Assembly (NCBI GenBank): GCA_964534555.1
Contig: CAZHRK010000001.1
Location: 592,904-656,903, forward strand
Direction of reading: 5' to 3'
Origin: an uncultured Pseudomonadota bacterium
GTDB lineage: Bacteria > Babelota > Babeliae > Babelales > RVW-14
DNA length: 64,000 nucleotides
The translations under genes and the position numbers were made by a program. Below are positions 27,195 to 36,606 of this stretch, piece by piece. Positions within the stretch are counted from its first letter, which is position 1; every line of letters starts with the position of its first letter. Below the pieces are notes generated by a model. That model was not told where the DNA came from and made no database searches. It worked only from the letters and a program-made list of their open reading frames with translations.

Positions 27195-27647
27195 ATGCTA
27201 TTTCAGTATGTTTGCTCATGTATCCTGGTTATTGCTGTTGCCTGTGCTCATACGTTGCTGTTGTCTGGGAGTAAACCTGCGCAAGAGCGCTCTGGACTAG
27301 CACGATTTGCAGCAGGGGAAGGCGATGATGCTGAGCCGCGGATTATAGCGCCTGCTGCTCCAGCCGCTGAGGGTGGGCGTAAAGCAGCTGATGTATTACC
27401 TAGCCGCCCACGTATTGCCCGGTTTGTAGCAAGTGAAGAGGATGATGGTGAGGTCAGAGTAGTAACTCCTCACTCTTTGGCAGAAGGTGGGGCAACAGCT
27501 TCAAGTGTGTCGATAGGTGAGCGCGCTGAGTCTGATGCATCAAAAGATGAAGCAGCCCAAACGCTTGATTTAGACGGTATAGCAATTGATTTGGGGCCAA
27601 GTGATGGCACTAGTGCTGATCAAAGCTCTGCTGAACCTGTTAAATAA
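27195..27647 (+). CDS. Secreted low-complexity acidic protein with a 2 x ~27-aa tandem repeat
   Basis: SD aaggggg. Hydrophobic N-terminus. GC-rich Ala/Glu/Gly/Asp composition. Confidence 0.6.
   Translation: MLFQYVCSCILVIAVACAHTLLLSGSKPAQERSGLARFAAGEGDDAEPRIIAPAAPAAEGGRKAADVLPSRPRIARFVASEEDDGEVRVVTPHSLAEGGATASSVSIGERAESDASKDEAAQTLDLDGIAIDLGPSDGTSADQSSAEPVK
27297..27491 (+). repeat. Intragenic tandem repeat (2 copies, 12 aa apart)
   Basis: LARFAAGEGDDAEPRIIAPAAPAAEGG versus IARFVASEEDDGEVRVVTPHSLAEGG. Confidence 0.8.
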
Positions 27648-27649
27648 AT

Positions 27650-27684
27650 AGAGGGCCTCTGAAAAATGGTTTCAGAGGCCCTCT
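27650..27684. terminator. Perfect 15-bp hairpin between convergent genes (bidirectional terminator candidate)
   Basis: agagggcctctgaaa-aatgg-tttcagaggccctct. Confidence 0.6.
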
Positions 27685-27702
27685 AGTATAAACAAAGTGT
27701 TA

Positions 27703-30339
27703 TTAAGCTCGGTCTGACGGCATCATAACCATCAGCACACGCTCATCAATCCCTCGTACAGGGCTTAATAAAATCTCTGGATTGCTGTAGCAGAGCTCAG
27801 CAACTAATCGTGTGTCGCCAGGTGTCATTGCGCGTTTTCCTTTTGCAGGGGATTTTGCACCGCCTGCGTGGCCTACGCCCTTACTTGGGCTTGCAGATTT
27901 AGCAAGGTCGGTAAATTTTATTGCTGATACCAAGTCTGGTTTATCTTTTAATTTGCTCAAAAGACTTTTCAGGTCAGTTGAAACAACCATGTGCAGCGGA
28001 TGCAGCGTGATAACACGCAGAGGAATAAGCTTACTGCCTTCTAATCTGCACTCAAGAACAATACGTGATGCCATTCTTATATCAGATTTTGCGGTAGGTG
28101 ATTTATGCATAATATCTGCTGCAACGCGCACAAAATCACATCCATCTCTTAAGGTAACTTCTCGTCTTAGCAGGCATGGTCCTAGGTCAGCAAGATCTGG
28201 GAGTGATGATTCTCTTGTGCCGCTCCCACCTGTAGCGCGTCCGCCCCCTGTAGCGCATGTGCCTCTGGTTGCTCCGTATGATACAGCAGTTGACGCTGCA
28301 GCTCTGGAAGTAGTTGTGCTTGTATCGTCAGCTAAGGCTTCATTAACAAGTATATCAATACACTGAAAAAGCTGTCTGCCTTGTAGTCCGCGGCCAAATA
28401 AGAGTGATGAGCGCTTTGTGTCTTTGCTAATTTCATCCCTATTGTCGCGTCGTTCAGCATCAGATGCAAAAATACTAAAAGCTCTTCCTGTGTACTCAAT
28501 TTCAAACGTATCAGTAATTTTGCACCAATTAAGTACAGTAGCTGAAACAATTCCGCTACCGATTCCAAGAGGAGTTTCATTGGTGTCATTATCAAAAATG
28601 TAGGCATATTTTTTATCACGATCGCACGCAGCATAAAGCTCATCAGTCATAATGTGCCCCCCTCCAACTTTTGCAGCAGCAGGAGATTCTGCAGATCCTG
28701 GGGTGATTTCAGCAGTTGGAGATAAGATGTGTAAGTGATTAACAAAAACATGTCTTGCGCCAGCACCATATGATGGATTAAGCGTCTGCGCAAGAGATAT
28801 AAGCTCTTGTGTAAGCATTTGATGATATGTTGTATCGCCAGCGGTGTAGAGCGCAGCATCATTAATTTTTTTATCTAGGGCTCTAAGGCATCGTGTAGCC
28901 ATACCGCCGTCAATCATATCACGGCATGATGTAATAATTCTTTTACACAGCGCGATATTTGTGCGCAAATGTGCTTTGGTGTAGTAATGATTCATAAGCA
29001 GTGAGACTGTCTTTTTCTTCAAGTCAGACGTGATGACACGTGGTGCAAGTGTTATAATTTTATTAAATGCGGTAATCGTGCTAGTAACGTACGTTTCAAG
29101 CGATGCAGCATCAATTCCTTCAGTTTGATAAAGCGGCATAAATACTTGTAAAAACGCCTCTTTGAGCTCGTCTGCAGCAATCGTTTCAAGGCTGATTCTT
29201 GCATCAGGCACAAGGCTTAGTGCATGGAGTATGATTGCATGTATAATCGTGCGATGCTGGATACTTTTTCCATGAGCACAAATAAGGTTTGCAAGAGCAG
29301 TGATAATACTTAACGCTTCGGTGCTTGCAGTTGCAATTAATCGATGTGATCGCCATGCTGCTCGTGGATTTAGGCATAATTCAACAAAAGAGTGCCACTC
29401 AATTGTTTGAATTATTCCAAACGCTTCTGTGAGTCCTGCAGGTATTTTAATGCTCAGGTCATCTGTTGCATCATCTGCAGCAAAAACTAAGCTACAAAGT
29501 GGTATAAATGTATCAAGCAGTGAGTCGTAAAGATCATGCTTCTCTGCAGATGCTCGAGTTGTTCCAGCAGTTGCTGTGAGCTCTTGTGCGTACTGAAGCA
29601 CGTGATGAATAAACCAGTGCACAATGTCTGTTGAGGTAAAGGTATCAGTAGCAAGCGATCCTGGGCTGTCTGGTGATGGTGTTGCTGTTCCTGCGCCGCC
29701 CACAAGCCCGAGTACAGATACTGGACGTCGTGCAGAAAAAGTTGGTGTGCGTGGTGTTGATCGACCTGTTGATGGTGAAAATAATCGCCCAACAAATGCC
29801 GCAGCGTCTGTTGGTGTCCCGAGTGCGGTATCAACAGTGCTGTCTCTGAGTGTTGGTTTTGCGCTTACTCCAATTTCAGGTGAACCTTGAGGCATTCGGC
29901 CAGCTTCAGCAAGTACATCGGTAATATCTTTATCATCATCTACATCTACTGGTGGCAGGTGGTGATGAGTAGACGTTTCTTCTGTTTCAAAAGTTAATTC
30001 TCGTACCGGTGCGTAACTAGGGGTTCTTGTCAGTACCAATGGAGTACCGATGCTAGCAGCAGTACCATCAATTGGATCTTTGCTTTCGCTTGCACCTCGC
30101 CCAAGGGCAGTACCTCCTCGGGGAGGCGTTTTATATTCAGCTCGCTGTGGTGAGCCATGCAGCCTAAACGCAGAGCTATGAGCTACTGCGCTTGGTGGCG
30201 GTGTAACACATCTGCTTGCAGCACCAGCTGTACTGGTAGCAGCATGTGTAGTTTCATCTGCTGGGCGTGAGCTACCAGCTGACATAAACGAGTGGCATGC
30301 GCTGAGTAACGCGCATATAAAAGCAAGTAAAGTAACCAT
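27703..30339 (-). CDS. Large secreted ORFan (878 aa): signal peptide, ~230-aa disordered region, then helical and C-terminal domains
   Basis: MVTLLAFICALLSACHSFMSAG signal. The N-terminal third is rich in Pro/Thr/Ser/Ala/Gly/Arg. No family motif recognised. Lys/Gly/Ala-rich patch near the C-terminus. Confidence 0.7.
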   Translation of the reverse strand: MVTLLAFICALLSACHSFMSAGSSRPADETTHAATSTAGAASRCVTPPPSAVAHSSAFRLHGSPQRAEYKTPPRGGTALGRGASESKDPIDGTAASIGTPLVLTRTPSYAPVRELTFETEETSTHHHLPPVDVDDDKDITDVLAEAGRMPQGSPEIGVSAKPTLRDSTVDTALGTPTDAAAFVGRLFSPSTGRSTPRTPTFSARRPVSVLGLVGGAGTATPSPDSPGSLATDTFTSTDIVHWFIHHVLQYAQELTATAGTTRASAEKHDLYDSLLDTFIPLCSLVFAADDATDDLSIKIPAGLTEAFGIIQTIEWHSFVELCLNPRAAWRSHRLIATASTEALSIITALANLICAHGKSIQHRTIIHAIILHALSLVPDARISLETIAADELKEAFLQVFMPLYQTEGIDAASLETYVTSTITAFNKIITLAPRVITSDLKKKTVSLLMNHYYTKAHLRTNIALCKRIITSCRDMIDGGMATRCLRALDKKINDAALYTAGDTTYHQMLTQELISLAQTLNPSYGAGARHVFVNHLHILSPTAEITPGSAESPAAAKVGGGHIMTDELYAACDRDKKYAYIFDNDTNETPLGIGSGIVSATVLNWCKITDTFEIEYTGRAFSIFASDAERRDNRDEISKDTKRSSLLFGRGLQGRQLFQCIDILVNEALADDTSTTTSRAAASTAVSYGATRGTCATGGGRATGGSGTRESSLPDLADLGPCLLRREVTLRDGCDFVRVAADIMHKSPTAKSDIRMASRIVLECRLEGSKLIPLRVITLHPLHMVVSTDLKSLLSKLKDKPDLVSAIKFTDLAKSASPSKGVGHAGGAKSPAKGKRAMTPGDTRLVAELCYSNPEILLSPVRGIDERVLMVMMPSDRA

Positions 30340-35653: not shown

Positions 35654-35764
35654 TGTCCACCTCCCGCGTTATGTTTTTATTTTAGAGGCGATGAAACAAA
35701 AAATGCTATGGATAACACGTTTAAATTATCTTGCTGCCGCGGTTTGAGACTTTGAAAAAGTAGT

Positions 35765-36170
35765 ATGTTCCCGCTCGCCCTGAGTTTATCGAAGGGTTGA
35801 CCTTCCGGGTTGTCTTAGGCAGGAACAGTGCCTCTGGGGGCGGGCAGGAACAGGCCCGCATCTAAAATATTAATTCATATAATTTATTACTCATGAGTTG
35901 AAAAATAGTTATACCCTAAACCTGTTCCTGTTTAGGAATTACCCTATGCGGAGTACCTGTATCCTGTTTTGCAATTACCCCAACGGCACTGTTCCTGTTT
36001 AGGTAGTACCCTGGAAAATAGATTTTTTATATTTGATATCCAAAGTTGTTCAGATCTGGCAACTATTCTAGGGTCCGCTCGATCAAACCCTTCGACACGC
36101 TCAGGGCGAGCGGAAACATAAAAACATCGCATTTGTAGCACGCAGGTGCGCTCAGGGCGAGCGGCAGTCT
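35765..36170. repeat. Nested inverted-repeat element (MITE-like or iteron-like) with an AT-rich core
   Basis: Outer arms: ccgctcgccctgagtttatcgaagggtt (35771-35798) versus aacccttcgacacgctcagggcgagcgg (36086-36113), 25/28 complementary. Extra half copy ctcagggcgagcgg at 36151-36164. Inner arms: caggaacag x2 (35820, 35845) versus ctgttcctg (35922, 35989) plus a degenerate copy (35957). AT-rich centre at 35860-35915. Confidence 0.7.
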
Positions 36171-36258
36171 TAGTCGCCATAATGCAGCAGGTTTTGCATA
36201 GTAAATATAAAAAATTATTTTTGTCGCATGACTGAGATTTTATGCACAGTATTGCTCT

Positions 36259-36606
36259 TTATTTTTCAATCAAAGTTACTGTTCTTTCCGGAAGTATCAG
36301 CACAACGCAGTATTGATTTCGGCCAGGAGGGAGAATAATCTGGTCGCTTCTTAATGCCGGCTGCTTGTGTTGATCAAGTGACTTTGTTATATAATTAACA
36401 TCTGTAATATTACCTTCACTCAGCTCTACTTCACTTATGCTAATACCCTTCTGGGCAAGCTTTACTGCGTCTACTTCATCAAGCGTATCATCAGCGTAGA
36501 ATGCATCGTATCCAGAGAGGTTTACATAGTATACAGATGCGGTGTGCGTGTGCGCTGTTTGAATAATTGCGAGTGCAAGCATGAGGCTTTTACATAAAAA
36601 TTTCAT
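36259..36606 (-). CDS. Secreted ORFan (115 aa), short paralogue of 35087-35653
   Basis: Signal MKFLCKSLMLALAIIQTAHT. Alignable to the N-terminal 115 aa of the neighbour. Lacks its C-terminal helical extension. Confidence 0.6.
   Translation of the reverse strand: MKFLCKSLMLALAIIQTAHTHTASVYYVNLSGYDAFYADDTLDEVDAVKLAQKGISISEVELSEGNITDVNYITKSLDQHKQPALRSDQIILPPGRNQYCVVLILPERTVTLIEK

Follow-up and report, generated by a model that had tools for sequence, protein, structure and literature searches.

The 64-kb stretch of DNA analysed here (the window, taken at its full length) carries, between a gene for a TPR-like protein and dnaE, an island of genes for predicted exported proteins that match no known family. 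According to the program-made list of open reading frames (ORFs), the island holds eight ORFs and one repeat-rich intergenic region between the remnant of an ankyrin gene and dnaE. An earlier description made from the letters alone (the sequence-only reading) placed these elements correctly and counted them as nine consecutive genes, a count that has to be corrected to eight. Four of the genes, A, B, C and D, follow one another in one direction and diverge from a large gene, g878. As judged by comparison with a sister lineage, the end of A and the whole of B, C and D have been exchanged in one piece for a very distant homologous version. The features are collected in Table 1.

Table 1. Positions of the island and of its component features in the window (aa, amino acids).
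Feature	Positions	Strand	Remarks
TPR-like gene	26000-26566		Border of the island
Lineage-specific island	26567-36760		Between the TPR-like gene and dnaE
Ankyrin-repeat pseudogene	26577-27011	-	Signal peptide; nonsense TAA at 26904-26906
g150	27195-27647	+	150 aa
Hairpin	27649-27685		16-bp stem; between convergent g150 and g878
g878	27703-30339	-	878 aa
Divergent control region	30340-30840		501 bp, 36.3% G+C
A (g456)	30841-32211	+	456 aa; first operon gene
Hyperdivergent cassette	32140-35073	+	Last ~23 codons of A and whole B, C and D; 2.9 kb
B	32253-33035	+	260 aa from ATG at 32253; longer reading from 32235
C (g242)	33073-33801	+	242 aa
D	33892-35076	+	390-394 aa; start 33892, 33898 or 33904
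g188	35087-35653	-	188 aa
Repeat-rich intergenic region	35654-36258		605 bp
g115	36259-36606	-	115 aa
dnaE	36761-40279	-	From the ORF list

The layout that had been proposed for the operon was borne out. Its genes are spaced by 23/41 nt, for the two readings of B, and 37 nt, a terminator scan found no terminator-like site between A, B and C, and a weak hairpin is present at 33782-33799. The control region upstream of A is AT-rich, as had been claimed, and contains a TG-extended promoter-like site, TTGACA-16-TAAAGT (30740-30767), directed toward the operon. Shine-Dalgarno-like motifs were found upstream of five of the eight genes; GGGGG lies 5' of the start of g150, and GAGGGG lies at the ATG of B. 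The sequence is consistent with a four-gene operon, A-B-C-D, read from the promoter-like site in the divergent region. The hairpin between g150 and g878 scores as terminator-like on the reverse strand, and we read it as serving both genes.

The hyperdivergent cassette

The window was compared with the contigs of its sister lineage (L082/L083), its nearest known relative. The sister contig aligns at 93.5% identity over 17707-32139 and at 96% over 35072-35745, and between 32139 and 35072 there is no DNA alignment at all. At the left border, around 32139/32140 (codon ~434 of A), 180 bp at 100% identity are followed by ~60 bp with four mismatches, after which similarity is gone; at the right border, identity is back exactly at the stop codon of D. 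In this interval the sister carries three genes for proteins of 276, 265 and 339 aa, in the order and with the architectures of B, C and D. These positional counterparts share 21-23% identity with B, C and D, and their Smith-Waterman scores lie above those of shuffled sequences (p = 2e-3, 1.5e-3 and 3e-4, respectively), whereas most non-positional pairs do not exceed shuffles. Therefore, the replacement of B, C and D by non-homologous genes was rejected. Rapid divergence in place was rejected as well, since the synonymous divergence (dS) of the flanks does not exceed 0.4 and, at either border, only a few bases separate 100% identity from none. On the evidence of these alignments, the cassette has been swapped by recombination for a very distant homologous allele, with sharp borders. 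The tail of A that takes part in the exchange is ~23 residues long in the window and ~45 in the sister. Since the exchanged unit reaches from within A to the end of D, we suggest that B, C and D are co-adapted with the tail of A and work together with it. Only two alleles of the cassette are known.

In the staphylococcal agr locus, the variable segment consists of the 3' part of agrB, agrD and the 5' part of agrC. The likeness to the present case lies in a contiguous segment that starts inside one gene, spans interacting neighbours and is swapped as a unit, with sharp borders and near-identical flanks. The two systems differ in that there is no homology between them and no evidence of signalling here, where the locus encodes four exported or membrane proteins and occurs in two alleles.

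Outside the cassette, the block genes can be aligned with their sister counterparts. The proteins g150, g878, A (over residues 1-436) and g188 are 91%, 84%, 95% and 95% identical, with ratios of nonsynonymous to synonymous divergence (dN/dS) of 0.24, 0.33, 0.26 and 0.24, respectively. The ratio is 0.00-0.09 in eight of nine family-annotated neighbours and 0.29 in the ninth, a GNAT gene. Within g878 it varies from 0.07 to 0.66 among windows of 80 codons. For g115, the sister has a gene of the same length (P0018), which adjoins dnaE and matches the g188/g115 profile. These comparisons show that the block genes are real, with frames kept in two lineages under purifying but relaxed selection. Divergence is uneven along the aligned 17707-32139. 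Neighbouring genes differ in dS, with values of 0.04 to 0.40, and 500-bp segments are between 83% and 100% identical. Such a spread indicates that this region of an obligate intracellular bacterium is a mosaic formed by recombination.

A counterpart of the operon was found in TM6 UASB124 (L002), the nearest relative by dnaE. Its island, downstream of dnaE, comprises a four-gene operon for proteins of 441, 311, 192 and 365 aa, whose architectures follow the order A-B-C-D, and two divergent genes for Ala/Pro-rich proteins with signal peptides. The D protein of this operon shows weak but significant similarity to that of the window (Smith-Waterman p = 5e-4). The counterpart implies that the A-D module is older than the species of the window and evolves too fast for ordinary searches. 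The L002 island opens with four small ORFs (4713-6164), which by eye look like nucleotidyltransferase/HEPN-type toxin-antitoxin pairs and do not occur in the island of the window.

Insertion at the dnaE junction

The eight block proteins gave no family match at meaningful levels in Pfam, NCBIfam, PHROGs, PADLOC or PDB, in agreement with the first impression that none could be placed in a known family, and PDB searches with sequences and with profiles returned no matches. Nothing significant was found in Pfam or PHROGs for the positional homologues from the sister and from L002. The one weak PHROG match, of C to phrog_36592 (E = 2.5e-5), is treated as compositional because the positional homologues do not reproduce it. 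For g878, a word-indexed search of 5.8 billion clusters recovered a single relative, the 84%-identical sister ortholog, from two other SRA runs, and an exhaustive HMMER search found no relative among 1.84 billion representatives. Profile searches with the D family and with the g188/g115 family recovered only the lineage of the window and its sister. Neither g456 nor the D profile gave a match in scans of JGI metagenomes. The exact proteins of the window were also found in one SRA assembly.

A scan of species-representative genomes identified Babeliales (candidate division TM6, Dependentiae) metagenome-assembled genomes as the closest dnaE relatives, at 54-72% identity. Other genes of the window code for Lon, KdtA, SbcC, FtsW, FtsK, a Mur ligase and BacA; KdtA, FtsW and the Mur ligase are consistent with a diderm envelope, and the set as a whole with a small diderm genome. 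In 10 of 14 Babeliales relatives, only 125-440 bp separate the 3' end of dnaE from the homologue of the TPR-like gene, and in the other four 0.9-2.6 kb, compared with 10,194 bp in the window. One of these four (L009) has a signal-peptide ankyrin gene in the gap. The carboxyltransferase gene beside the TPR-like gene is kept in L007, L004 and L012, the GNAT gene in L007, and the Na/Ca exchanger gene in L007 and L012. Because the junction is otherwise tight, the block is regarded as a lineage-specific insertion. Thus, gene order across Babeliales shows the block as inserted at a conserved junction of dnaE and the TPR-like gene, and the earlier suggestion of a lineage-specific system is upheld in this respect.

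The classical hallmarks of a mobile island (integrase or transposase, tRNA target, flanking direct repeats, deviant composition) were not found. No integrase or transposase family in Pfam, NCBIfam or PHROGs matched the block, and there is no tRNA at the borders. A tRNA-targeted island was rejected, as the only tRNA of the window lies far off, at 20439-20514. The repeats of the island are internal to it.

The sequence-only reading had also described the local G+C as far above that of the housekeeping genes. Its hand counts were correct (36/60 and 22/60), but the excess does not extend over the block, which has 43.3% G+C between flanks of 41.7% and 44.5%. In g150, g878 and A, the excess resides entirely at codon positions 1 and 2, and Ala, Gly, Pro, Arg and Thr make up 0.40-0.51 of the residues. 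The G+C content at third positions (GC3) is lower in six of the eight genes (0.22-0.30) than in housekeeping genes (0.33-0.46), whose range includes g188 (0.38) and g115 (0.35). Low GC3 recurs in other signal-peptide ORFans of the window (means 0.294 and 0.295 vs. 0.381; Mann-Whitney p = 6e-4 and 3e-3), so that it characterises this gene class in this genome and does not mark a foreign island. An origin as foreign DNA, as far as it was argued from G+C, was rejected: the block equals its flanks, the peaks reflect amino-acid composition, and the high local G+C was a false lead. The sequence-only reading had named, as what would speak against its own proposal, a composition explained by amino-acid bias together with universal conservation of the genes in free-living relatives; the former was found and the latter was not.

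The intergenic region between g188 and g115 contains 35-nt inverted repeats (35764-35798 and 36086-36120), copies of CGCTCAGGGCGAGCGG, three copies of CGCTCGCCCTGAG (chance expectation 0.02) and (GGCA)CTGTTCCTG motifs that occur repeatedly. Short-read contigs from both lineages terminate in or beside it. These features suggest a dispersed or MITE-like (miniature inverted-repeat transposable) element. The repeat motifs recur at an end of the sister contig (L083 1-230), beside a gene for an AAA_14/DUF4143 ATPase that the window does not have.

Possible roles of the predicted exported proteins

Export signals and anchors were judged by Kyte-Doolittle hydropathy alone. By this measure, all eight proteins have a hydrophobic N-terminal segment (11-residue maximum of 1.98-3.02 in the first 45 residues), and the statement that all begin with a signal peptide or anchor was confirmed. 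The hydrophobic N-terminal signal of g150 is accompanied by an internal repeat (ARFAAGEGDD/ARFVASEEDD) and an acidic tail. In g878, a signal peptide with a possible lipobox, LLSAC (Cys15), precedes a Pro/Thr/Ser/Ala-rich segment of ~230 aa, a helical part (~236-520) and a beta-rich C-terminal part (~722-779), the last two taken as secondary structure only from a low-confidence model. Protein A starts with a classical basic-hydrophobic Sec-type signal, MKRILSLVMAGLVAISGSVTVDA, and continues with a basic Arg/Ala-rich segment, a helical region, a bilobed hydrophobic domain and a helical Thr/Ala-rich C-terminus. The hydrophobic double segment that had been noticed in this protein is present at residues 273-293 and 295-311, with Gly-Pro between them, and is kept in the sister; hydropathy revealed no such bilobed domain in B, C, D, g878, g150, g188 or g115. 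The tail anchor reported for B is located at residues 228-254 of 260, at the other end from its signal peptide. Protein C has a signal peptide, is Ala-rich and has no further strong transmembrane segment, and D consists of an N-terminal membrane anchor, a helical part of ~130 aa and a long acidic/polar low-complexity tail. The proteins g188 and g115 are paralogous over the first ~110 residues of g188, g115 being 39% identical to its N-terminal domain; no other paralogs of block genes were found in the window.

Residues 24-63 of A (30910-31030), which would form the new N-terminus after predicted cleavage (SGRRPARKRTQALRAENASSSAQRAARAARVARRAGLRNA), include 12 Arg and 1 Lys and only one acidic residue, a composition similar to that of segments that target organelles or bind membranes or nucleic acids. 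It is not conserved in the L002 counterpart.

We propose, with moderate confidence, that the block proteins are membrane-interacting host-interface proteins, exported by the Sec pathway and the type II secretion system (T2SS), which evolve fast and exchange their alleles by recombination. In an obligate intracellular bacterium of the Babeliales (Dependentiae/TM6), the block would then be a secretome island. All eight products would enter the Sec pathway through the N-terminal signal peptide or anchor; some would probably be released by the T2SS, a step taken from reports on the phylum and not from this genome, and others would probably stay on the bacterial surface. They would act at the interface with a protist host. 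Within the operon, A would provide a bilobed hydrophobic hairpin, B a C-terminal anchor, C a soluble component, and D an N-terminal anchor with a long acidic disordered tail, the four proteins making up one co-adapted membrane-associated assembly. A single assembly is proposed because B, C and D were exchanged as a unit with the tail of A, via homologous recombination in conserved flanks. Export route, host-facing location and complex formation are steps that we infer.

Reports on the phylum are in line with such a secretome. In Chromulinavorax, signal peptides occur on 44% of the coding sequences, and ORFans are over-represented among them (PMC6561590). In Babela, which grows in a vacuole, the T2SS was the only secretion system found, and 79 of 126 ankyrin proteins have a signal peptide and were taken as secreted into the host (PMC4378268). 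A T2SS with two copies of gspD is core to TM6 (PMC4776705). The block resembles the signal-peptide ORFan secretome of Chromulinavorax destructans and Babela massiliensis in its phylum, its N-terminal Sec-type signals, its absence of recognisable domains and its ankyrin neighbours. All three defining traits of that class are present here: the phylum, an N-terminal signal or anchor (by hydropathy only), and the absence of any domain or of any homologue outside the lineage. By contrast, the published class is genome-wide, while here we deal with a defined 10.2-kb island at a conserved junction, with a four-gene operon whose architecture recurs in L002 and whose distal 2.9 kb exist as two hyperdivergent alleles. 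Sets of signal-peptide ORFans are already recognised as typical of Dependentiae; the co-replaced, sharply bounded cassette is the new feature.

Several points weigh against a role at the host interface. Hydrophobic N-termini occur on about half of all ORFs in the window, so that their clustering in the block is weak evidence of a dedicated system, and g878 and g150, whose signals were called by hydropathy only, lack a positively charged n-region. The selection tests are pairwise, two lineages carrying the island, and in no 80-codon window of g878 does dN/dS exceed 1. The AlphaFold2 model of A, from a single sequence, is all-helical with a mean predicted local distance difference test score (pLDDT) of 45.7 and a predicted template modelling score (pTM) of 0.20, and that of g878, from a two-row alignment, has a pLDDT of 31.1. 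Both models are unusable, and no fold search was performed with them, because matches to models this poor would be meaningless; for the same reason, the mechanism is inferred. Finally, signal peptides and anchors fit proteins of the inner membrane and periplasm equally well.

This last point leads to the main alternative, which we nevertheless doubt: the block may encode lineage-specific structural or transport parts of the bacterium's own envelope that are not delivered to the host. A, B and D would be anchored in the inner membrane, with domains that reach into the periplasm, where C would reside; g878 would be a lipoprotein, and the fast evolution would reflect weak constraint or surface exposure. 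A-D are indeed predicted by hydropathy to lie mostly on the trans side of the cytoplasmic membrane, held by anchors, and the lipobox-like LLSAC of g878 is invariant in the sister. A probable outer-membrane barrel among the ORFans of the window (54152-55612, with a C-terminal F) indicates that some signal-peptide ORFans here are envelope proteins. However, a swap for a ~22%-identical version inside flanks that are 93-100% identical would be unusual for internal machinery and is typical of exposed or host-facing proteins. Furthermore, the island is absent from most relatives, and it is flanked on either side by signal-peptide ankyrin genes, a class treated as secreted host-interaction proteins (PMC4378268, PMC6561590).

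It is tempting to extend the host-interface proposal further. A-B-C-D might be a four-component co-adapted complex that is exported by Sec and the T2SS, inserts into a host membrane (vacuole or organelle) and acts, in a phylum that lacks type III secretion, as a functional analogue of the chlamydial Inc proteins, with hyperdivergent alleles kept under balancing or diversifying selection, exchanged by recombination and setting host compatibility. In this full form, we consider it speculative and rather unlikely. Like an Inc protein, A has two hydrophobic helices of ~17-21 residues with a turn of 1-2 residues and a helical C-terminal part (definition in PMC3048545), and it is fast-evolving, lineage-restricted and from a vacuole-dwelling type of intracellular bacterium. 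Inc proteins, on the other hand, carry an N-terminal type III signal and are confined to Chlamydiae, whereas A has a Sec-type N-terminus, belongs to Dependentiae and shows no sequence similarity to them. Only a T2SS has been reported for Dependentiae (PMC4378268), and the present genome was not searched for a type III system. A may thus work like an Inc protein, though it is not one.

That the block is the cargo of a decayed mobile element or prophage, with no role in the interaction of bacterium and host, seems quite improbable to us. The idea could appeal to the insertion relative to other genomes, to the inverted-repeat-bearing region where assemblies break, to the extra ATPase gene of the sister beside the same repeats, and to the weak PHROG match of C. 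It is opposed by the fact that the block holds no integrase, transposase, phage structural or replication gene and otherwise no significant PHROG or PADLOC family, the match of C not being reproduced by its homologues. There is no tRNA at the borders, the G+C equals that of the flanks, the low GC3 is common to signal-peptide ORFans elsewhere in the window, and the genes are under purifying selection.

A polymorphic toxin/immunity operon, or a pore-forming one of the ClyA/Hbl type, is a still less probable interpretation of A-D. The hairpin of A would then act as the head that inserts into the membrane, with partners or immunity proteins encoded by the variable genes downstream. The variable end of A is replaced together with the downstream genes, and, as in the Hbl/Nhe/AhlABC and ClyA toxins, we see an operon of signal-peptide, predicted all-helical proteins (A being all-helical in its low-confidence model), one of them with a Gly/Ala-rich hydrophobic hairpin; in Bacillus Hbl/Nhe, too, all components have signal peptides. 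Unlike those toxins, B and D carry simple membrane anchors. HBL and ClyA gave no match in Pfam or NCBIfam at E <= 1 and none in PDB, nor did any toxin or immunity family match. Polymorphic toxins have a variable C-terminal domain of at least ~100 residues and an immunity gene, and the ~23-45 residues of the A tail are too short for a toxin domain. The remaining explanation, that the ORFs are annotation noise or decaying pseudogenes, could point to the absence of known homologues, the partly low complexity and the neighbouring ankyrin pseudogene, but is barely credible for ORFs of up to 878 codons that two lineages keep unbroken (dS up to 0.26, dN/dS of 0.24-0.33), that have Shine-Dalgarno-like motifs and that conserve their architecture in a third lineage.

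Dependentiae are widespread, almost uncultured parasites of protists. The wider question is how they manipulate their hosts when Sec and a type II system are all that has been reported for them. If the block proteins are host-interface proteins, the locus offers a handle on this question, as a defined operon of predicted exported, membrane-active ORFans at a recognisable junction. The cassette also points to the proteins on which host-driven selection is probably strongest, and these would be the first candidates for localisation and host-range work. Alleles of ~22% identity in DNA that is 93-100% identical also show that recombination operates in these intracellular bacteria.

Neighbouring genes and other ORFans of the window

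The ankyrin gene next to the TPR-like gene is a pseudogene, as the sequence-only reading had recognised: a single CAA to TAA change severs the signal peptide from a 91-aa ankyrin ORF. In the sister lineage the gene is unbroken, at 144 aa, and keeps the signal peptide. Beyond dnaE, 40236-41285 on the forward strand encodes a signal-peptide ankyrin protein rich in Ala, Pro and Arg, called at 305 aa in the sister. Its program-made TTG start overlaps dnaE, and the true start is probably an internal Met before FFTLMLLVVTAVA.

The tRNA of the window, a tRNA-Met on the reverse strand, lies inside the 5' extension of a program-made ORF (19696-20529). The real protein of this ORF is a CT398-like coiled coil that starts downstream of the tRNA; the sister call has 237 aa.

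Two adjacent signal-peptide ORFans are encoded on the reverse strand at 14064-15704 (546 aa, GC3 0.31) and 15748-16893 (381 aa, GC3 0.23). A hydrophobic stretch rich in Gly and Ala is present in the larger one; the smaller one has, by eye, a comparable segment at its C-terminus, which lies below the hydropathy threshold. No sequence similarity of the pair to the block was found; the two may share a functional class with protein A. Four more signal-peptide ORFans are without a Pfam match (52862-53923, 54152-55612, 55753-56313 and 62377-63483), three of them with low GC3. One, of 486 aa (54152-55612), ends in MSSSF like an outer-membrane barrel, and another, of 186 aa, is extremely basic and rich in Lys, Arg, Ala and Asn.

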